Shown here piece after piece: positions 16,692 to 30,115 of a DNA stretch of 43,721 nucleotides (within the stretch, counting starts at the first letter, position 1; each line of letters opens with the position of its first letter). Source of the DNA: Thermoplasmata archaeon. Its GTDB lineage: Archaea; Thermoplasmatota; Thermoplasmata; SG8-5. A model generated the notes under the pieces. It ran no database searches. It was given only the letters and a program-made list of their open reading frames with translations, and was not told the DNA's origin. The position numbers were made by a program, and so were the translations under genes. Location: the NCBI GenBank assembly GCA_046485165.1, contig JAWOHM010000083.1, forward strand, positions 1 through 43,721, written 5' to 3'.

Positions 16692-17465
16692 ATGGTGAGC
16701 CATATGAGAATAATATCCTGGAACGTGAATGGGATCCGCGCAATCGCCAAGAAAGGCTTTTTGAATTGGGTGGCCGCAGCCCAGCCAGACATCCTCTGCA
16801 TACAGGAAACGAAGGCATGGCCGGAGCAGGTGCCCCCGGAGATACAAAATCCGGTAGGTTTCCATTCCTACTGGTCCCAACCCTCAAAAAAGGGCTACAG
16901 CGGCGTGGTCACGTTCATCCGGGACCGGCCGGGTGCGGTATCGCGTTCAATCGGCGTTGACGAGTTCGATTCCGAGGGCAGGGTGGTGATGGCCGATGCG
17001 GGCGAATTCATTTTGTTCAATGTCTATTTTCCGAATGGGAAGGCCAGCCCGGAGAGGCTGCGGTACAAATTGGCCTTCTATGACCGCTTCCTTGAGGCCA
17101 TCGAGGCGGAACGAAAGCGCGGCAAACCCGTCATCTTCTGCGGGGACCTGAACACCGCTCACAAGGCCATAGACCTGGAGCACCCCAAGGCCAACGAGAA
17201 TGTGTCTGGCTTCCTGCCCGTGGAAAGGGCATGGATGGACAAGGTAATCGAGCATGGTTATGTAGACACATTCAGGCATTTTGACAAGTCCCCGAAAAAG
17301 TACACATGGTGGGATTACAAGACCGGCGCCAGGGAAAGGAACGTCGGTTGGAGGCTGGATTATTTCTTTGTCTCGGATGAGATGCTGCCCCGCCTCGGAA
17401 ATGCCTTCATAATGTCCGATACCATGGGCTCGGACCACTGCCCGGTGGGCATCGAACTGCGATGA
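16692..17465 (+). CDS. xth: Exodeoxyribonuclease III (AP endonuclease, EEP fold)
   Basis: MRIISWNVNGIRA, LCIQETK, FCGDLNTAH, WWDY and SDHCPV are classical Xth/ExoIII motifs. The start could also be ATG 16704. Confidence 0.9.
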   Translation: MVSHMRIISWNVNGIRAIAKKGFLNWVAAAQPDILCIQETKAWPEQVPPEIQNPVGFHSYWSQPSKKGYSGVVTFIRDRPGAVSRSIGVDEFDSEGRVVMADAGEFILFNVYFPNGKASPERLRYKLAFYDRFLEAIEAERKRGKPVIFCGDLNTAHKAIDLEHPKANENVSGFLPVERAWMDKVIEHGYVDTFRHFDKSPKKYTWWDYKTGARERNVGWRLDYFFVSDEMLPRLGNAFIMSDTMGSDHCPVGIELR

Positions 17466-17559: not shown

Positions 17560-17952
17560 ATGCTTAATTCAACCTTGAAAGGGGGTAAAACTTTGGCAAA
17601 GGAAAAAGAAACCACAGAGAAGGCAGACAAGGCAGACAAGGCAGACAAGACAGACAAGGCAGGCAGGACAGACAAGGCAGGCAGGACAGACAACACGGTG
17701 TACATAGGCAAGAAACCGACAATGAGCTACGTATTGGCCGTAGCCACGCAATTCAACAGCGGCTCCGACAGCGTGACCATAAAGGCCAGAGGCAGGTCCA
17801 TCAGCACGGCAGTGGATGTTGCAGAGATTGTCCGGAACAGATTCGTCCAGGGATTGACCGTGGACAATATTAGGATTTCCACCGAGGTCCTGGAAGGCGA
17901 GGAAGGCAAGACATCCAACGTCTCTTCCATCGAGATATTCCTCAAGAAGTGA
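17560..17952 (+). CDS. albA: Alba chromatin/RNA-binding protein with a charged repeat N-terminal extension
   Basis: The C-terminal roughly 90 aa ([50 protein letters not shown]...EIFLKK) match the Alba fold pattern. The start is uncertain between ATG 17560 and the SD-preceded TTG 17593. Confidence 0.85.
17622..17693 (+). repeat. 8 tandem 9-bp units (GGCAGACAA / GACAGACAA / GGCAGGCAG) inside the alba 5' coding region
   Basis: Read directly: 3x ggcagacaa, then (gacagacaa ggcaggcag) x2, then gacagacaa. These encode [23 protein letters not shown]. Confidence 0.9.
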
Positions 17953-22164: not shown

Positions 22165-23100
22165 ATGGCAGAAGATGTGATAACAGTCAAGGACCTCGTC
22201 AAGGTCTATGATGATGTTCGTGCAGTGGACGGCATAACATTCTCGGTCGAAAAGGGCGAGGTATTCGCTTTCTTGGGCCCCAACGGCGCCGGGAAGACAA
22301 CCACCGTGGAGATGATAGAGACCATACGCACCCCCACATCCGGCGCCATCGGCATTCTGGACAAGGACATCAAGAAGGACCGCATGGAGATTCTGAGGCG
22401 CATCGGCGTCCTGCCGCAGGAGTTCAGCTCGTTCGACCGCCTGACCGTGGAGGAGACGTTGAAGTACTATGCCGACCTCTTCGAGGCGAAATGCGATATA
22501 GACAGGCTCATCAAGCTGGTGAATCTGGAGGACCAGAGGAAGAAGCTGTACAAAACCTTGTCCGGCGGCCTGAAGCAGAGGGTCGGCATCGCAGTCGCGC
22601 TGGTCAATAATCCCGAGATAGTGTTCCTGGACGAGCCGACTACCGGGCTCGACCCGCGCGCCAGGCACGACGTCTGGGAAGTGATAAAGGGCCTGAGGAA
22701 GGAGGGAAAGACAATCTTTCTCACCACCCATTACATGGAGGAGGCGGAGGTGCTGGCAGATTATATAGGCATCATATCCAAGGGCAGGATAATCGCCTAC
22801 GGGACCACGACCGAACTCATTGACAAGCACTTCAAGACAGTCAAGGTGACGATAAAGGGCGGCACCGGGGGCGTGGACGCACTGGCAAGGAAGATGGGCA
22901 TGCCAATCCAGTCGATGGACAACGGCAACATCACGATTGAGGCAAACGGCAACGACCAGATAGTCGAGTTCCTGAACGCGCTGAAATCAAACAATATCTC
23001 TTACCTTGGCATGGATATCAGAAAACCCAACCTGGAGGAGCTGTTCCTGGCATTGACCGGCGAGCAATTGGTCCAGGCGGAAAAGGAGGTGCAGAAATGA
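22165..23100 (+). CDS. ABC transporter ATP-binding protein (ABC-2/DrrA-like)
   Basis: Walker A GPNGAGKTT, signature LSGGLKQR, Walker B IVFLDEPTTGLD and H-loop TTHYMEEA. Confidence 0.9.
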   Translation: MAEDVITVKDLVKVYDDVRAVDGITFSVEKGEVFAFLGPNGAGKTTTVEMIETIRTPTSGAIGILDKDIKKDRMEILRRIGVLPQEFSSFDRLTVEETLKYYADLFEAKCDIDRLIKLVNLEDQRKKLYKTLSGGLKQRVGIAVALVNNPEIVFLDEPTTGLDPRARHDVWEVIKGLRKEGKTIFLTTHYMEEAEVLADYIGIISKGRIIAYGTTTELIDKHFKTVKVTIKGGTGGVDALARKMGMPIQSMDNGNITIEANGNDQIVEFLNALKSNNISYLGMDIRKPNLEELFLALTGEQLVQAEKEVQK

Positions 23101-24206
23101 ATTTCAAGAGAGTGCTGGCCAACCTGACCGTTCATCTCAAGCAATTCTCAAGGGAGAAGAGCACGATTTTCTTCGTGCTGCTGTTCCCCATCCTGCTGAT
23201 GGTCCTTTTCGGATTCATATTCTCGGACATGGGCAGCAGCATGGGCACCCTTGTTGTCCAGAACATGGACGGAGGAATCCATGGGGACATGCTTGTTTCC
23301 ACCCTGAATGACACGGGCCTGTTCATTATGGTGGAGGTTGACCCGGCACTCGATTCGGATCAGTACTTCCGTGACAACAAGCTCAATCTCCTGGTGATTA
23401 TTCCGGCGGGCTATTCTGATGCAATCAATGCCAAACTGATGGATGCCAGCAACCCCCAGTCCAATATCACCATGCTCTATGACCAGGGCAATTCCTACGC
23501 CCAGACCAAGATTTCCGTGGTGTCCTCGGTGATAGGCGGGATGAACAAGGGCCTTTCCGGCTCCGTGGATTACATCGGCATCGAGATGGAAGGCACCCAG
23601 AACGAGCAATTCGAGTTCATTGACTTCTTCGCCCCCGGCATCATAGCCATGTCCGTCATGACCACCTGCCTCTTCGGCACTGTCGGAATGAACACCGAGC
23701 TGCGGCAGAAGGGCATACTGAAGAAGCTTGCCACCACGCCTCTCACCCGTTCGGAATGGTTGATATCCAACATCCTGTACCAGCTGTTCATGTCCCTGAT
23801 ATCCACCGCTTGCATACTTGCGGTCGGCATGGTGGTGTTCGGTTTGCGACCGCACATCAACATCTACATGTTCGTCTTTATCCTGCTCTGCGTCTTCAGC
23901 TTCTCCGGCATCGGCATGCTCATCACCCGGTACGTGAAGGAGGCGGAATCCGCCCAGGCCGCGGCAAATGCGGTCATGTTCCCCATGATGTTCCTGTCAG
24001 GCACGTTCTTCCAGCTGGAGATGATGCCTGGATTCCTGCAGACCTTCGCAAAGTTCCTTCCACTGTATTACGTCAACGAAGGCCTGCGCGCATCGATGAT
24101 ATCCCTCGATATGAACGTGATACTGGAATCGGCCCTGGTCATAGGCGTGTTCGGGATAGTTGTATTCGTTATGGGCGTGTTCCTGACGGACTGGAAGGAA
24201 AACTGA
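23097..24206 (+). CDS. ABC-2 type transporter permease
   Basis: It overlaps the ATPase stop by 4 nt (ATGA). It has an N-terminal TM helix, a large loop and about 5 C-terminal TM helices typical of ABC-2 permeases. Confidence 0.8.
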   Translation: MNFKRVLANLTVHLKQFSREKSTIFFVLLFPILLMVLFGFIFSDMGSSMGTLVVQNMDGGIHGDMLVSTLNDTGLFIMVEVDPALDSDQYFRDNKLNLLVIIPAGYSDAINAKLMDASNPQSNITMLYDQGNSYAQTKISVVSSVIGGMNKGLSGSVDYIGIEMEGTQNEQFEFIDFFAPGIIAMSVMTTCLFGTVGMNTELRQKGILKKLATTPLTRSEWLISNILYQLFMSLISTACILAVGMVVFGLRPHINIYMFVFILLCVFSFSGIGMLITRYVKEAESAQAAANAVMFPMMFLSGTFFQLEMMPGFLQTFAKFLPLYYVNEGLRASMISLDMNVILESALVIGVFGIVVFVMGVFLTDWKEN

Positions 24207-24250
24207 GGAGATGGCAAGGCCCAGTTCATCCTTGCCAGCGTATTCAAACG

Positions 24251-24670
24251 GCATGCCCCGCCTGTACGAACTTTGTAGTACCCCATTGATGTGCTAACAT
24301 CAAAGTGAGTGAGACGATAAGTCTCCTGGCTTTTACCCAGGCTTATCGTTGTACGAGGATTGTAGCTCAGAGGCAATTTATGAACATCAATCCGAGCCAG
24401 ACGAGGCACAGCCTCGTCCTTTCTCAGCCTGAGGGCTTCGAGCAAGCCGAATTGCGCACAATTCGGCGACGAGGGCGGGGTCTGGAAGCATTTTATCAAC
24501 GAGTGCGAATGTCCAACCATTCTGAGGCATTTTCCAAACCCTATTTTGGGAAGCCCCGCCTGATATTTTCTCTACATTTTATTAGGGCGGGGAGGAAAGG
24601 TACTCGCCCCGCGTCTCGAATGCGGGGCGAAACTTGTTGCGCGGATCTGGCATGGGTGCTTTTCTCTCAT
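24251..24670 (+). repeat. Copy A of a hairpin-rich noncoding element, carrying a 205-nt insertion (24266-24470)
   Basis: GCATGCCCCGCCTGT (24251-24265) is identical to 27748-27762. GAGGGCGGGG (24471-24480) equals 27763-27772. From there to about 24670 it aligns with 27763 to about 27941, including GTGCGAATGTCC..CATTCTG and GGTACTCGCCCCGC-N9-GCGGGGCGAAACT..GCGGATCTGGCA. Confidence 0.8.
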
Positions 24671-24796
24671 CCTTCGCGTTGCAGGAGGGCCTGTGGGCGC
24701 GAACTGGGCTAATGATTGTTTTGGCCAGTTCGTCGAAGTTTCATTTGATATTGTTTCTGGAAACTTCGGAATGCATGATAAATCGGGTCTGCTTTG

Positions 24797-24887
24797 AAGT
24801 ATAGACCAAGCTTTGCTATATTTTATATAATCATATCCAATCGGATATAGCAGTAACAGGGCCTGTGGGCTAGCTTGGTCTATACTT
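24797..24887. repeat. 91-nt composite palindrome in an AT-rich noncoding block
   Basis: A 16-bp inverted repeat AAGTATAGACCAAGCT (24797-24812) pairs with AGCTTGGTCTATACTT (24872-24887). Nested inside are GCTATAT/ATATAGC (24815-24821, 24845-24851) and ATATCC-aatc-GGATAT (24833-24848). Confidence 0.85.
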
Positions 24888-25163
24888 GTTGCTTTGGGAG
24901 CAATAGACCCCAGTTCAAACGGCACATTCCAACGGATGTGCCTTGAAAATCTGGGCAGGCCCATTAATTTTTAACAAGTAATGTTAAAAATATTGGGATT
25001 GGGGGAACACGCAGGAAAAATCAATAATGACCGGTATCCGTAGAACAGCGAATGAAAACAGAATACTGGCTGAGCTGTTCGCGCCCACGAACCCCGTTAC
25101 AGCAGCATAACTTTATAATTCGAGTTGTTTTGTAATATGGCGGATACATCGGAGGAATATTAA

Positions 25164-25289
25164 ATGAAATGTCTGTGTGGAAATATACTTAAATGGGTAG
25201 TCAAGGACAAATGGATTTGCGATGTGTGTAACAGAGAATATACTACCGCGGAACTAGAGGCTAAGGAAAAAAGTGTTAAGGAACAATAA
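25164..25289 (+). CDS. Untracked 41-aa Zn-ribbon ORF (MKCLCGNILKWVVKDKWICDVCNREYTTAELEAKEKSVKEQ)
   Basis: I translated it codon by codon. GGAGG lies 8 nt upstream of the ATG. The Cys pattern is CxC-x13-CxxC and the stop is TAA 25287-25289. It is below the 60-aa track cutoff and sits in the AT-rich block. Confidence 0.45.
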   Translation: MKCLCGNILKWVVKDKWICDVCNREYTTAELEAKEKSVKEQ

Positions 25290-25327
25290 ATGCAAAGCCT
25301 AAATACACCGGCGCCATTCTAGTTCCC

Positions 25328-25951
25328 ATGACCTCCGGCTTCATCACCCTCGAAGGCATAGACGGCTGCGGAAAATCGGTGCTGGCCAAGATCATAGTCG
25401 GCCGCCTGAGAGGCGCCGGCATGAGGGTCACCCAGACAAGGGAGCCAACCAGGTCCTGGCTGGGCGGAGCGGTGCGCCGCAGCTACCGGGAGGAGATAAG
25501 CCCCTACACGGAGGCATTCCTGTTTCTTGCCGACCGCGCGACCCACACCCTCTGGATAAAGGAGCAGATGGCCCTGGGCAAGGTCGTTGTGTGCGACCGG
25601 TACTCGGACTCAACGGTCGCCTATCAGGCCGCTTTGCTCCACCAGAAGCTGGGCGGGGACACCGATGAATACATGAGATGGCTGCTGGACATGAGCAGGC
25701 CGGCGATAATTCCGCCGGACATCACGTTGCTTCTGGACGTTGATCCGAAAGTATCGCTGAAACGGCTCAAGAGCCGGAAGGAGATGGAGAAGTTCGAGAC
25801 CCTGGAGAACCTGAGACAGGTCAGGAGAAATTATCTGGAACTGGCCAGGATGGACGGCCGGATAAAAATCATAGACGCCTCGAAATCCATAACCGATGTG
25901 AAGGAGCAGGTCTTCACGGTGCTGGGGCAGCACTTCGGCATTGAGTTGTGA
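25328..25951 (+). CDS. tmk: Thymidylate kinase
   Basis: The P-loop ITLEGIDGCGKS, DRY-like CDRYSDST and the LID region are present. Length is 207 aa. Confidence 0.9.
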   Translation: MTSGFITLEGIDGCGKSVLAKIIVGRLRGAGMRVTQTREPTRSWLGGAVRRSYREEISPYTEAFLFLADRATHTLWIKEQMALGKVVVCDRYSDSTVAYQAALLHQKLGGDTDEYMRWLLDMSRPAIIPPDITLLLDVDPKVSLKRLKSRKEMEKFETLENLRQVRRNYLELARMDGRIKIIDASKSITDVKEQVFTVLGQHFGIEL

Positions 25952-26201
25952 AATCAGATCTCAAGATCCTCATCATCGGGCACTGTTGCACAGGTGGAGA
26001 ATGCGAAGCATTGCCCAAGCGTTTCCTCAGAATCGCCCCTCAGCCCAAGAGTTCATTCATCACGTCTCCCGACATGTGCTTTCCGGATAAAAACCCCCCC
26101 GGTGCGCATTGCATCGGAATGTGGCAGAAATTCTTTATACATCCCCACATTATCAGGTTTAACAATTTCACAAGTATTATTCCCGCAAGGGGGGCAATCG
26201 C

Positions 26202-27623
26202 ATGGCAAAGAAAAAACAGACACTTGAGGACAAGCTGGCCGCAAAGACAGAATCTTCATGGCTGGCAGTGGATAAGAAGACCGAGAAGGAGATTTATGAC
26301 TTCGCCGACGGATACATGAAGTTCCTGTCCGAGGCCAAGACAGAGCGCGAAGTGGTCACTTTCATTGAAAAGGCCGCAAAGAAGCACGGATTCAGGCCCA
26401 TAGAAAGTTACAAATCCCTGAAAGCCGGGGACAAGGTCATAATCACCCAGATGAAGAAGGTCGCAGCCCTCGCAATAATCGGCAAGGAACCCATCGAGAA
26501 GGGCATGAAGGTCGTGGGCAGCCACATTGACTCGCCCCGCCTTGACCTCAAGCAGAAGCCGCTCTACGAGGACACGGACGCCGACATGGCCCTGTTCAAG
26601 ACCCACTACTATGGCGGGATAAAGAAATACCAGTGGGTGAACGTTCCGCTGGCCCTGCACGGCGTCATCGTTCGTGCAGACGGCAAGATAATCGATGTCA
26701 ACATCGGCGAGGACGAAAACGACCCGATATTCGTCATAGGCGACCTGCTTCCGCACCTGGCCAGGAAGGTCCAGGGCGAGCGCAAGCTGTTCGAGGGCAT
26801 CACCGGTGAAGAGTTGCGCATAATCATCGGCAGCCGCCCGTCCAAGGACAAGGACACCAAGAACAAGTTCAAGCTCAACGTCCTGGAGATACTCAACAAG
26901 AAATACGGCATTGTGGAGGAGGACCTCATAAGCGCCGAGCTGCAGGCGGTTCCGGCCACCAAGTGCCGCGACATAGGTTTCGACCGCAGCCTCATCGGCG
27001 GCTACGGGCAGGATGACAGGGTGGACGCCTACGCATCGCTGATGGCCATCTGCAATATCCAGAATCCCAGCAAGACTGCTCTCGCCCTGTTCTTCGACAA
27101 GGAGGAGGTCGGCAGCATCGGCGCCACCGGCGCCCAGGGCGGGTTCTTCGAGTACTCGCTCGTCCAGATGATGGAGAGATTGGACCCCAAATTCCGGTTT
27201 GCCACTCTGAAGAAGGTGCTGGCCAACTCCCGGGCATTATCGGCCGACGTTGACGCTGGCGTGGATCCGATGTTCAAGACCGTTCACGAACTGGGCAATG
27301 CGGCCAAACTGGGGTGCGGCATAGGCATCTGCAAGTTCGGGGGCGCTGGCGGCAAGGGCGGCTCCAACGATGCCAATGCCGAGTTCCTGGGAGAAATCAG
27401 GCAACTCCTCAACGACAAGAAAATCCCATGGCAATACACGGAGCTGGGAAAGGTCGACGAGGGCGGCGGCGGAACTGTCGCCCGGTTCCTGTCTCAGCAC
27501 AACCTCCAGGTCATAGACTGCGGCCCGGCGCTGCTCAGCATGCATGCTCCATTCGAGATATCCAGCAAGGCCGATGTGTATTACACGTATCGTGCCTTCT
27601 TGGAGTTCCACAAAGCCAAGTAG
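26202..27623 (+). CDS. M18 family aminopeptidase (aspartyl aminopeptidase-like)
   Basis: GSHIDSPRLDLK, GGYGQDDRV, FDKEEVGS and LSMHAP match the M18 metal-ligand contexts. Length is 473 aa. Confidence 0.85.
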   Translation: MAKKKQTLEDKLAAKTESSWLAVDKKTEKEIYDFADGYMKFLSEAKTEREVVTFIEKAAKKHGFRPIESYKSLKAGDKVIITQMKKVAALAIIGKEPIEKGMKVVGSHIDSPRLDLKQKPLYEDTDADMALFKTHYYGGIKKYQWVNVPLALHGVIVRADGKIIDVNIGEDENDPIFVIGDLLPHLARKVQGERKLFEGITGEELRIIIGSRPSKDKDTKNKFKLNVLEILNKKYGIVEEDLISAELQAVPATKCRDIGFDRSLIGGYGQDDRVDAYASLMAICNIQNPSKTALALFFDKEEVGSIGATGAQGGFFEYSLVQMMERLDPKFRFATLKKVLANSRALSADVDAGVDPMFKTVHELGNAAKLGCGIGICKFGGAGGKGGSNDANAEFLGEIRQLLNDKKIPWQYTELGKVDEGGGGTVARFLSQHNLQVIDCGPALLSMHAPFEISSKADVYYTYRAFLEFHKAK

Positions 27624-27747
27624 AATCGCGGGTTGAACCGACAAGCGCAATCTCCCGTCAGAGGTTCGACCATGGCCCGTGAGCATATGGGTGCTGAATG
27701 GAGGGGCCATGAATTCCCAGCATATTATTGCAAAACATATGATTGCA

Positions 27748-27941
27748 GCATGCCCCGCCTGTGAGGGCGGGGTTTTGAATTATTTTTGTATCAAGTGCGA
27801 ATGTCCCTTCATTCTGGAGCATTCTGTTGCTCTGTTTTGGAAAACCCCCGCTGTGAGGCGGGGGATGTCGGGTACTCGCCCCGCATCTCGCGAGCGGGGC
27901 GAAACTCATTACGCGGATCTGGCACTGTTGCTATTCTCTCT
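27748..27941 (+). repeat. Copy B of the hairpin-rich noncoding element (uninterrupted form)
   Basis: See copy A. It contains three GC hairpins: CCCCGCC-TGTGAG-GGCGGGG, CCCCCGC-TGTGAG-GCGGGGG and CGCCCCGC-N9-GCGGGGCG. Confidence 0.8.
27753..27787 (+). terminator. Hairpin plus T-tract downstream of the M18 peptidase gene
   Basis: CCCCGCC-tgtgag-GGCGGGG is followed by TTTTgaattaTTTTT. It forms the 5' end of repeat copy B. Confidence 0.6.
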
Positions 27942-27963
27942 AACTTTTGTGGAAGCACGGGCA

Positions 27964-28244
27964 TCTAGCCGGTGTCGGGGCCGAGAACCGGGTTTAACGT
28001 CGAAGCCTGCTCGAAAATCGAAATGGTTGACCGGTGCCAGGACCAAGAACCGGGTTGAACATCGATTTAAACACCTCCCCGCCCTCACAGGCGAGGCTTC
28101 CTAAGGATGAGCTCAATTGTCACCAACCGGGTTCCGGAAACCCGGTCACAACCCCGCGCTTACACGCGGGGCATGATTAAGTTGAACGGGTGCCGGACCC
28201 ATGGACCGGGAAGGGGAGGTGTGGCGCTGACAGGTCCGCCTAGA
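27964..28244. repeat. GC-rich 280-nt noncoding block with repeated 35-nt hairpin modules, a candidate structured RNA
   Basis: R1 is CCGGTGTCGGGGCCGAGAACCGGGTTTAACGTCGA (27969-28003). R2 is CCGGTGCCAGGACCAAGAACCGGGTTGAACATCGA (28031-28065), and 29 of 35 positions are identical. A degenerate third copy lies at about 28181-28215. Extra hairpins include CCGGGTT-ccgga-AACCCGG, CCCCGCG-cttaca-CGCGGGG and an inverted copy of the TGTGAG hairpin at about 28077-28096. The ends are complementary: TCTAGCCGG 27964-27972 with CCGCCTAGA 28236-28244 (8 of 9). Confidence 0.6.
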
Positions 28245-28321
28245 CCGGATATGCATGTATTTTCATGACACCGAAGGTTTTAACTACTTGTTTAAACATA
28301 CGGTATTCACAGGGAACATGA

Positions 28322-28597
28322 ATGTTCAATCTGAGGTACGAGGGCAAGCTGTGCGTTCCCAGCCATGACGCGCTCAAGGATATGGCCAGGCACGATGTTC
28401 CACCCCGGTTGGTGGAAGTCATGATACTGGATGGCCAGGACTATGAGGACAGGATGATGGCCAAGGGCGAGATCGGGCGGATGGTAAGAAAGGACGGCTT
28501 CATAATATTCGCGAAGCTCGTGCCCAGTTGCTCCCGCTGGGATGGCGAGGAGGTATGGCTGATCAAACACATAGGAAAAAGGAGGTGCAAGAGATGA
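28322..28597 (+). CDS. Small DUF4258-like protein (putative toxin of a TA-like pair)
   Basis: This 91-aa protein has SHDALKDMARHDVPPRLVEVMILDG, which resembles the HA..RM..R.I....V motif of DUF4258. Its stop overlaps the next start (ATGA). The family assignment is by eye only. Confidence 0.45.
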   Translation: MFNLRYEGKLCVPSHDALKDMARHDVPPRLVEVMILDGQDYEDRMMAKGEIGRMVRKDGFIIFAKLVPSCSRWDGEEVWLIKHIGKRRCKR

Positions 28598-28917
28598 CCA
28601 AGAAAAGATTGGAGGAAAAATCGCTAGTATGCCCCGAATGCGGCGGGGACGCGAAGCCCATGATGATAAACGTGAGTGGCCTGGGCGTCACCGGTTGGAG
28701 ATGCCGATGCGGCTACGAAATGCTGCATCCCGAAGAGCTGGAGAAGGCCTATATGTATCTCCAGGCGCAGAAGCGGGAGAAGGTCAAGATATCAAAGCGC
28801 GGCAACTCCTACATGATAACCATACCCAAAGCCATAGCGGATGCCATTGGCGCTGACGAACTGGACTTTGCCGAGGTGTTTCTGAAGGACAGGAAGACGA
28901 TTGTGGTGGAGGTTTGA
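28594..28917 (+). CDS. Zn-ribbon plus AbrB/MazE/SpoVT-type DNA-binding protein (putative antitoxin)
   Basis: MTKKRLEEKSLVCPECGG...CRCG forms a Zn ribbon. KISKRGNSYMITIPKAIADAIG then matches the swapped-hairpin AbrB motif. The track ORF starts at 28528, but the coupled ATG 28594 is preferred. Confidence 0.6.
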   Translation: MTKKRLEEKSLVCPECGGDAKPMMINVSGLGVTGWRCRCGYEMLHPEELEKAYMYLQAQKREKVKISKRGNSYMITIPKAIADAIGADELDFAEVFLKDRKTIVVEV

Positions 28918-28927
28918 ATTCGGTATC

Positions 28928-30115
28928 TTATAAAAGATCCTCGAACTCCTTCACCAGCTCCGGATGCTTCTCCTTGATGGCCTTCAGTATGTTGATGACC
29001 GAGATGTTATTCATGCCGACTTCCGTCAGCAGGCCGATGAGCTTGTCGAATGTCTCATCTGAAAGCGTGACGCATTTCTCCTTCGCCATCCAGTTCCGGA
29101 ACAGCTTCTCCTCGATCTCCGCCCTCCAGGCTTTCTCGTACTTCTGGAAGAACTCCTTGGAGCAATCCCCGATTTTGATTGCTTCGGCAGCCACTTTGCC
29201 CGCCTCTCTGCCGGAAATGCAGGCATGGGCTATCCCGCCCCCCGTCATGGGGTCTATCATTCTGGCAGCATCGCCAACGAGCATCATGTTGTCGCAGACC
29301 ACGCTGTCAAGCGGGGCGTTTATGGAGCACCCGCCGGCGACCATGTCCAGTTGCACCGCGTTCTTCATGCCCGGCTGCTTGGCAATCCACCGGTCCAGGC
29401 ACTCCTTGGGCTGGCCTCCGTGCTTGACCATATGCGCACCCATGCCTATTCCGACATTTGCGGTATTGTTGTTCTTGGGGAACACCCAGATGTACCCGCC
29501 GGGCGCGTCGCTGCCCGCGTAGAATTCCGTGTATTTCGGGTCAATCTTGATATTTGTGAGCCTGTACTGGACGCATGTCATGATGTCGCTCAGTGCCAAG
29601 TTGGTGTCTATGCCAGCCCATCTGCCGACCTGCGATTCGTAACCATCCGCTCCGATGATTATCTTGCACCTGACCTCTTTCGGCTCGCCTTTCTGGATGA
29701 GCTTCAGCCCGACAATCTTGCCGTTCTCTTTTATGATCCCGGTGGCGGAAGTCTTGACCTCTATTTGCGCACCAGCCTGGCCGGCCAGTGCGGCAAGCGC
29801 CCTGTCGAACATGTCCCTTTCTATGACATAGCCCACTTCATTGCCCGCCCTGGCCTCGTCTACCTCGAAGGTTTTTCCCCCGGGCGATATTATCCTGGCG
29901 CCGTCCATCTCGGCCGCAATCCATTTTCTGTCGACGGGTATCTCAGCTTGCTTGAGCAATTCCCTGGCCAGTCCTTCGCCGCATCTCACATGCGTGCCTA
30001 TCTCCTGGCGCTTCTCGATGAGCAGGGTCTTAGCCCCGCCCATCGCCGCGAACCTGGCGGCCGTGCTTCCGCCGGGCCCGGCCCCGACAACAACCACATC
30101 GTATTCAGCGTCCAT
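28928..30115 (-). CDS. Geranylgeranyl reductase family flavoprotein (digeranylgeranylglycerophospholipid reductase-like)
   Basis: The FAD-binding YDVVVVGAGPGGSTAA, RCGEG, IIGADG and LVGDAA motifs are present. Length is 395 aa. It is the last gene of the radical SAM-ferredoxin operon. Confidence 0.85.
   Translation of the reverse strand: MDAEYDVVVVGAGPGGSTAARFAAMGGAKTLLIEKRQEIGTHVRCGEGLARELLKQAEIPVDRKWIAAEMDGARIISPGGKTFEVDEARAGNEVGYVIERDMFDRALAALAGQAGAQIEVKTSATGIIKENGKIVGLKLIQKGEPKEVRCKIIIGADGYESQVGRWAGIDTNLALSDIMTCVQYRLTNIKIDPKYTEFYAGSDAPGGYIWVFPKNNNTANVGIGMGAHMVKHGGQPKECLDRWIAKQPGMKNAVQLDMVAGGCSINAPLDSVVCDNMMLVGDAARMIDPMTGGGIAHACISGREAGKVAAEAIKIGDCSKEFFQKYEKAWRAEIEEKLFRNWMAKEKCVTLSDETFDKLIGLLTEVGMNNISVINILKAIKEKHPELVKEFEDLL

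Follow-up and report, generated by a model that had tools for sequence, protein, structure and literature searches.

An intergenic element downstream of an ABC-2 permease gene in a Thermoplasmata archaeon contains a hairpin whose two arms are separated by 205 nt that a second copy of the element lacks. What is this element, and how did the 205 nt come to lie within its hairpin? The locus is on contig JAWOHM010000083.1 (assembly GCA_046485165.1), analysed here over its full length of 43,721 nt, which we call the window. A first-pass annotation, made from the letters alone, had described two copies of a noncoding element, here copy A (with the insertion) and copy B. Our analysis suggests that the two are old paralogues within a multi-copy, modular family of intergenic repeats. 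The insertion lies exactly on the dyad axis of the hairpin, and the orthologous site in the nearest relative is empty.

The split hairpin of copy A

The features of the two copies are as follows (H1 to H3, hairpins in 5′ to 3′ order).

24251–24685, + strand: copy A, type-i repeat member carrying the insert (alignments, covariance model, orthologue at locus L066)
24256–24480, + strand: hairpin H1 of copy A, arms CCCCGCC (24256–24262) and GGCGGGG (24474–24480), now 211 nt apart
24266–24470, no strand assigned: 205-nt orphan insert, on the dyad axis TGT|GAG of H1
24554–24592, + strand: hairpin H2 of copy A, with a 25-nt loop (24561–24585), TGATATTTTCTCTACATTTTATTAG
24604–24630, + strand: hairpin H3 of copy A, TCGCCCCGC-N9-GCGGGGCGA
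27748–27953, + strand: copy B, uninterrupted type-i member (alignments, covariance model)
27753–27772, + strand: hairpin H1 of copy B
27845–27864, + strand: hairpin H2 of copy B
27876–27902, + strand: hairpin H3 of copy B

Copy A starts 45 nt 3′ of the stop codon of the permease gene (23097–24206). Both copies open with GCATGCCCCGCCTGT; copy B then goes on as GAGGGCGGGG, forming the H1 hairpin CCCCGCC-TGTGAG-GGCGGGG, and in both respects the first-pass annotation had read the sequence correctly. Between the same arms copy A has TGT, then 205 nt, then GAG. When the insert is taken out, copy A aligns to copy B with 80% identity across about 200 aligned bases. The proposed duplication thus stands, with the 3′ ends of the copies corrected to about 24685 and about 27953. 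A second indel separates the copies at H2: copy A has a loop of 25 nt there, copy B one of 6 nt. With a covariance model of the 3′ half, copy A reaches 92.4 bits (24593–24682, E ~1e-20) and copy B 77.8 bits (27865–27953, E ~1e-16). The hairpin CGCCCCGC-N9-GCGGGGCG is found in both, its stems conserved and its loops differing, as had been noted. A coding duplication was rejected as the origin of the pair; the frames common to both that resemble open reading frames (ORFs) are out of frame across the conserved 5′ block.

The insert begins ACGAACTTTG... and ends ...TTCGGCGAC. These ends are not inverted repeats of one another and no base is common to the ends and the flanks. The terminal base at each end of the insert is not the one that it displaced, and the loop bases of H1 are all retained. 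Because the bases flanking each junction differ, the boundaries are unambiguous, and the placement between TGT and GAG originally proposed is confirmed. Neither a target-site duplication nor terminal inverted repeats are present at the junctions.

The nearest relative by permease protein (L066, 87% identity) has a type-i element 27 nt past the permease stop codon, at the position corresponding to that of copy A. That element has an uninterrupted H1, GCATG-CCCCGCC-TGTCAG-GGCGGGG-T, and an H2 loop of 8 nt. The insert-free sequence of copy A is marginally nearer to this copy (81.9%) than to copy B (80.0%). The comparison of empty and filled sites that had been suggested for this locus is therefore available: the orthologous site is empty and copy A is filled. 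Since the orthologous site holds an intact H1, the insert is derived and lineage-specific. Among about 100 family hairpins, copy A is the only one with a large insert in H1.

We considered whether the 205 nt could be an assembly artefact, or could be ancestral and lost from copy B and the relatives. The stretch is a single metagenome contig, which leaves room for the former. An assembly chimera was nevertheless rejected; the common flanks, at only 15 and 11 nt, are too short to mislead an assembler, and the arms are restored exactly. The opposite polarity would have to contend with about 100 short-looped family hairpins in several genomes, including the positional orthologue, and independent precise deletions each restoring a GNRA loop (see below) are implausible. 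Both versions seem to us hardly credible.

The insert contains five perfect palindromic stems. Four hairpins had been named in it at the outset, and all four are real and perfect. Folding relative to shuffled sequences gives z = -4.45 for the + strand and -4.32 for the - strand. All 38 of the 38 stem pairs are Watson–Crick, with no G-U. Because the pairs are all Watson–Crick and both strands fold equally well, the structure points to DNA-level palindromes and not to an old RNA domain. The left-end hairpin, TTGATGT-GCTA-ACATCAA, lies 20 nt in from the left end of the insert, and the right-end hairpin, GCCGAATTG-CGCA-CAATTCGGC, lies 3 nt in from its right end.

The repeat family

A 24-nt probe comprising H1 and its 5′ tag, CATGCCCCGCSTGTRAGSGCGGGG, was used to find the family. 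Copy A (where it is split), copy B and a minus-strand copy at 28150–28175 all keep its sequence. The probe located 44 loci in JGI metagenomes. At least 27 of the matches are on 15 large contigs of one assembly, Ga0180732, from a related Thermoplasmata archaeon that is also the source of the syntenic relative L001. The others are from Ga0315274 (the genome of L009), White Oak River sediment and further samples. The syntenic relatives first retrieved via the M18 protein are without the element. The element is not, then, a private duplication; it is a family common to a clade of uncultured Thermoplasmata, with dozens of copies per genome. The modular noncoding family that had been suspected from two copies is thereby borne out, in its covarying stems and modular plan as well as in its numbers, and is much broader than supposed.

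Members follow a common plan: a CATG-tagged H1, a variable linker, a similar hairpin H2 and one of three tails. H1 has the pattern CCCCGCC-TGTRAG-GGCGGGG. The tag reads CA(G/T/A)C-ATG in 65 of the 65 copies examined, the ATG itself having belonged to the probe. In the type-i tail, that of A and B, the order is GGTACT-H3-GAAAC..CGCGGATCTKGCA..TTCTCTC..TTCGCGTTGC. The covariance model of this tail finds 20 copies in 412 kb, of which 8 are outside its training set, and no additional one in the contig. Pairwise identity of the copies is about 77–82%, the same within and between genomes, and for this reason the pattern looks like long-term retention and not a recent burst. Convergent pairs are frequent, 330–430 nt across and bounded by inverted CATG-tagged hairpins; examples are found in the contig at 27749–28175 (copy B with a third copy, C), in L024 (10151–10550), L036 (1492–1871) and L060 (2535–2907). 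These pairs are reminiscent of REPIN doublets (pairs of repetitive extragenic palindromic, REP, sequences) or of a miniature inverted-repeat transposable element (MITE) with hairpin termini.

H1 frequently sits 6–50 nt past the stop codon of a same-strand gene. Of the 39 non-overlapping cases with a called upstream gene, 26 have that gene in the orientation of the element. Pfam searches on ten of the upstream genes returned unrelated and mostly recognisable housekeeping functions (e.g. GluRS, FttA, Ogg).

No Rfam 15 family reaches its gathering score over copies A and B or the insert, the sole passing match in the contig being a tRNA-Phe. An E-value scan of 24100–28400 gave three sub-threshold matches, none over the insert, and the relatives' loci returned tRNAs only. 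The earlier statement that no known RNA family is recognisable here is thus correct for Rfam 15. The papers searched contain nothing specific on such repeats in archaea, and the family appears to be undescribed.

In 14 type-i members 96.7% of the cells at paired positions can pair, as against at most 63% when the partners are slid. Covariation, which had been put forward as a check, is observed in both H2 and H3. In H3 four pairs show compensatory changes (C-G/U-A, G-C/C-G/A-U and others) and no pair is broken. H2 occurs in the compensatory forms CCCGCC/GGCGGG, CUCGGGG/CCCCGGG, CCCGGC/GCCGGG and others. The non-Watson–Crick positions in 85 unique TGTRAG hairpins are T-G in 28 cases and C-A or A-C in 5, and the sense strand is therefore the folding, functional strand. 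The loops read as GNRA (a U-G pair closing GUGA or GUAA, as in UGUGAG and UGUAAG) or as CUUG; GNRA and CUUG are stable RNA tetraloops. We also inspected UGUGAG as a kink-turn. It does not fit a K-loop, and the U-G pair closing a GNRA tetraloop reads better. We note that a mini-ORF, ATG-CCC-CGC-CTG-TGA/TAA, spans H1; its ATG belonged to the probe and the H2 hairpins have no ATG.

The H1 and H2 loops fall into length classes. Most are 6 nt (162 raw matches, both strands counted), a few are 12–14 nt, about 18 copies have 24–27 nt, and one has 45 nt. The 24–27-nt class, with about 18 copies in relatives, has the form (T/G)CATG-CCCCGTC-[conserved loop]-GGCGGGG; examples are at L028 6821(-), L062 5181(-), L024 10151(+) and L041 624(-). 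Some of these loops resemble box C/D sequences, e.g. TGATGA...CTGA in L041, and might bind L7Ae. H2 of copy A is a degenerate representative of this long-loop class. The apex of the hairpins thus tolerates extra sequence, yet an insertion of 205 nt is exceptional.

The hairpins are kept by selection on one strand. Most probably this selection acts on RNA read through from the upstream gene, as a 3′-untranslated region or terminator-like structure. Less probably, it acts on single-stranded DNA of the same strand. By analogy, the elements may act as REP sequences and bacterial interspersed mosaic elements (BIMEs) do, in termination or in protection of mRNA ends.

These observations raise the possibility that the 205 nt are an expansion segment. 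A structured RNA with tolerant apical loops could have gained a 205-nt domain by recombination with a paralogue or another repeat and kept it as harmless or useful, without transposition. The discrete size classes of the relatives' H1 and H2 loops would suit this, as would the long H2 loop of copy A, the H1 arms intact on both sides, the GNRA and CUUG loops and the strand bias of the stem wobbles. The insert itself does not behave in this way. It has no G-U among its 38 pairs and folds equally on both strands, its sequence is unrelated to the 25–27-nt loop class, and in the minimum-free-energy fold of the full copy A the H1 stem is lost. The L066 orthologue is, moreover, without it. We regard such accretion as rather improbable.

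Interspersed palindromic repeats (REP, BIME, REPIN) have long been studied in bacteria, and comparable archaeal systems are scarcely described. The present family shares with them short GC-rich imperfect palindromes with a one-sided conserved tag, present in dozens of copies per genome (PMC3733652, PMC3116915). Like them it is extragenic, often just past stop codons, with G-T pairs that favour one strand; its copies occur at high number in mosaic clusters with other motifs, in alternating orientation and in inverted pairs 330–430 nt across. It differs in its archaeal host and in its tag, which is CATG and neither GTAG nor CGTC. Its units, of about 200 nt with three hairpins and a tail, are longer and have GNRA or CUUG loops, and its copies are only about 80% alike within and between genomes. 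No gene resembling a REP-associated tyrosine transposase (RAYT) turned up at the loci, whole genomes not having been searched for one.

Its dozens of copies per genome, still about 80% identical across species, together with its covarying stems, stable tetraloop caps and preference for gene 3′ ends, make the family a tractable candidate for an archaeal 3′-end, terminator or mRNA-stability element, or for the substrate of a single-strand DNA transposase.

Origin of the insert

The first-pass annotation had suggested an intron-like insertion in a small RNA gene, and this did not survive inspection. An archaeal bulge-helix-bulge intron requires two 3-nt bulges bearing the splice sites and a 4-bp helix between exon and intron ends. 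At CCCCGCC-TGT|ACGAAC and GGCGAC|GAG-GGCGGGG at most two bases are complementary in either arrangement, so the helix with its 3-nt bulges cannot form. A group I or group II intron was likewise rejected, Rfam giving no match and self-splicing introns being longer than 205 nt. Loop introns do exist in this lineage, a tRNA-Pro gene in the same intergenic region having a 30-nt insert in its T-loop, and there is a likeness to the non-canonical loop introns of archaeal tRNAs in that extra loop sequence is present in one lineage and absent from a close relative. The insert differs from these in being several times longer and in having no bulge-helix-bulge motif. Removal of the 205 nt after transcription of an RNA gene is accordingly a very improbable account of it.

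Nor does the insert derive detectably from coding sequence. A search of a set of 5.8 billion proteins with a concatenated six-frame pseudo-protein from the insert and the two copies returned nothing at E<=0.1; the set includes this contig's own called proteins, and the exclusion covers families represented there. A classical MITE was also rejected, the insert being without terminal inverted repeats and without a target-site duplication. One copy of it is seen in the 43.7-kb contig and the collections searched.

The reading that we favour, tentatively and at somewhat less than even confidence, sees in the insert either a small non-autonomous element or a module from some other mosaic repeat. 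It would have entered the exposed single-stranded apex of the extruded H1 hairpin of copy A, in the lineage of this contig, by an integration route that leaves no target duplication (IS200/IS605-, RAYT- or IS110-like). We favour integration at the apex because of the hairpins near the insert ends, the lack of target duplication and terminal inverted repeats, and the position on the dyad axis of a repeated palindrome. The hairpin-targeting mobile element of the first-pass annotation is thus a plausible candidate. The empty site in L066, the dyad axis and the lack of target duplication agree with it; the second insert copy that a mobile element would be expected to leave was not found.

Precedent exists for the proposed target. 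REP palindromes serve as insertion sites for elements of the IS110 family and for other insertion sequences (ISs), in some cases on the axis of palindromy, and IS110-family elements are without terminal inverted repeats (PMC1525189). In Thermomicrobium roseum GTAG-23 REPs are nested in CCGSSCC(n3,4)GGSSCGG palindromes (PMC3733652), a form that closely resembles the present H1 target. The insertions in REP palindromes (IS1397, IS621, ISPpu9/10, ISPa11, ISRm22) likewise place a foreign element inside a repeated palindrome. The 205-bp insert differs from them in having no gene, a single copy and no demonstrable parent element. With IS110/IS1111 elements it has in common the absence of terminal inverted repeats and its placement in a specific palindromic repeat, H1. 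IS110 elements that use a bridge RNA have a core dinucleotide common to the target and the element ends, and guide loops complementary to target and donor.

A second comparison is with palindrome-associated transposable elements (PATEs) derived from IS200/IS605. Like these, the insert carries a hairpin close to each end and is free of terminal inverted repeats and of target duplication. HgcC RNAs originate in PATEs and in the right (3′) ends of IS1341-type tnpB elements (PMC4615843, PMC4247193), and the family resembles PATEs and HgcC/sotRNA (sense overlapping transcript RNA) in being archaeal and structured. Type-iii members give weak HgcC (RF00062) matches of 22.6 bits (contig 28057–28146, -) and 28.0 bits (L029 6707–6821). 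Both span model positions 1–130, the full length, and both are far below the gathering score of 50 bits. In the five other type-iii-bearing loci scanned there was no HgcC match at E<=1, and the 205-nt insert has no HgcC signal. A further difference is that neither tnpB nor tnpA adjoins any family copy. An IS200/IS605 ancestry for part of the family may be taken as a lead, not as membership.

A number of results weigh against the reading that we favour. The left and right hairpins of the insert share no sequence, which is atypical of a PATE, and no tnpA/tnpB parent sharing the insert ends is present in the contig or the relatives' loci. No core dinucleotide is repeated at the junctions as IS110 integration would have it. 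Guide-like complementarity amounts to one 7-mer (TGAGGGC) to the target and three 6-mers, of which one matches the target's reverse complement and the other two match the circle junction or its complement; with about 0.4 chance 7-mer matches expected (an estimate), this is nothing beyond chance. There is no transposase or other mobile-element gene across the 43.7-kb contig. None adjoins the family members either, all-against-all clustering of 549 ORFs of the hit loci and Pfam annotation of the neighbours giving ordinary genes only. We found no second copy of the insert by blastn inside the contig, by blastn and nhmmer over about 430 kb of relatives' DNA, or by blastn against plasmids and phages. 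An exact 25-mer of its right end has no match in JGI metagenomes. A degenerate IUPAC 33-mer (insert plus element tail) matched, in GTDB genomes, only a conserved Pyrinomonadaceae gene by chance, and four probes for the insert in IMG/VR gave two matches, both unrelated terminator hairpins. On the side of the family, no clear TATA-like signal of an own promoter lies upstream of H1 (there is only mild A/T enrichment at -33 to -26). Transcription of the elements, as continuations of the upstream genes at their 3′ ends, is our inference. The insert is a single unexplained event, and its weight is limited accordingly.

The sole lead to a relative of the insert is a 77-nt alignment, at 64% identity, between insert positions 131–204 and a repeat in L028. 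This is a CATGCCC-headed repeat beside a tRNA and is single-copy in the data. CGAGCAAG is identical in this repeat and in the right end of the insert, and a hairpin common to the two differs in a single compensatory pair. The similarity is marginal (E 0.077 against all loci), a further point on the adverse side. On this right-end similarity, the insert may nonetheless come from the same pool of mosaic modules.

The main rival is that the insert was captured during break repair. Hairpin tips are nuclease-sensitive. The tip of the H1 hairpin or cruciform could have been cut (e.g. by a Mre11–Rad50-type nuclease) and end joining could have trapped an unrelated 205 bp, in which case the insert would be neither mobile nor functional. 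One event among about 100 family hairpins, the exact dyad axis, the lack of target duplication and of junction microhomology, and the failure of every search to find another copy are all as expected. A random fragment, which would be mostly coding, is unlikely to be as structured as the insert, with z of about -4.4 on both strands and five perfect palindromes, and the insert has no detectable coding ancestry. The junctions are also clean, with no loop bases lost. On balance we judge capture to be unlikely, if a serious contender.

Integration of a non-autonomous element or module at the apex therefore continues to be our working proposal. A bolder version would make the family the first archaeal REP/REPIN-like system with vertical descent, or a new class of 3′-end RNA, and the insert a new, apex-seeking non-autonomous element; this we think improbable. 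The split hairpin and the empty orthologous site constitute a defined insertion event, which with the full genome could reveal what targets these hairpins.

Genomic context

A third family member lies next to copy B.

27960–28176, - strand: copy C, type-iii member, convergent with copy B, 3′ limit approximate

H1 of copy C is CCCCGCG-TGTAAG-CGCGGGG (28152–28171) with the CATG tag. Its H2 is CCTCGCC-TGTGAG-GGCGGGG (28077–28096), next to which are two CCGGT..ACCGG hairpins.

In the left part of the contig the order is a DUF655 protein, seryl-tRNA synthetase, an ABC ATPase, the ABC-2 permease and copy A. In the right part thymidylate kinase and an M18 aminopeptidase precede copy B and two small ORFs, after which come geranylgeranyl reductase and a radical-SAM enzyme with an HMPTM-type zinc ribbon. 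The best matches of the contig proteins are in Thermoplasmata metagenome-assembled genomes, at 83–89% identity.

The spacer between the M18 and reductase genes (27624–28928) is 1.3 kb long and contains copy B, copy C, a 91-aa ORF and an AbrB/MazE-like ORF. The same spacer in L067 (5298–5531) has 235 nt only, and in L001 other genes are inserted, with ORFs of 267 and 878 aa. Another palindromic repeat, GCCATGCACC..ATCAAAG-loop-CTTTGAT..GGTGCATGGC, is found around the M18 gene in L001 (5560–5930) and L019 (about 1000–1080 and 2790–2870). This GCCATGCACC/GGTGCATGGC repeat of the relatives' M18 intergenic regions is absent from the contig. L019 is a close relative (M18 protein 89% identical), and directly upstream of its M18 gene, at the contig edge (1–772), is an IS110-family transposase gene (Pfam Transposase_20).

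The tRNA-Pro gene mentioned above is unannotated and lies about 400 nt downstream of the insert.

24859–24963, + strand: tRNA-Pro(UGG) gene, with the T-loop insert at 24917–24949

Over its exons it matches the intron-less tRNA-Pro of L067 at 75 of 75 positions. The 30-nt T-loop insert can form a fold resembling a bulge-helix-bulge, and the gene was missed by ARAGORN and by the Rfam tRNA model. The tRNA-Pro of L001 has a different insert at the same position. Together with a conserved upstream region of about 135 nt, the tRNA-Pro segment (24686–24919) is inverted relative to L001 4228–4422 and L067 2659–2892. The first 12 nt of the tRNA (GGGCCTGTGGGC) recur at 24688, and in L001 the promoter-proximal part of the segment is duplicated.

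Elsewhere in the window, just 3′ of the ORF at 16692–17465, a 9-nt tandem repeat, AGACAAGGC and variants, extends over about 11 units (17598–17696).

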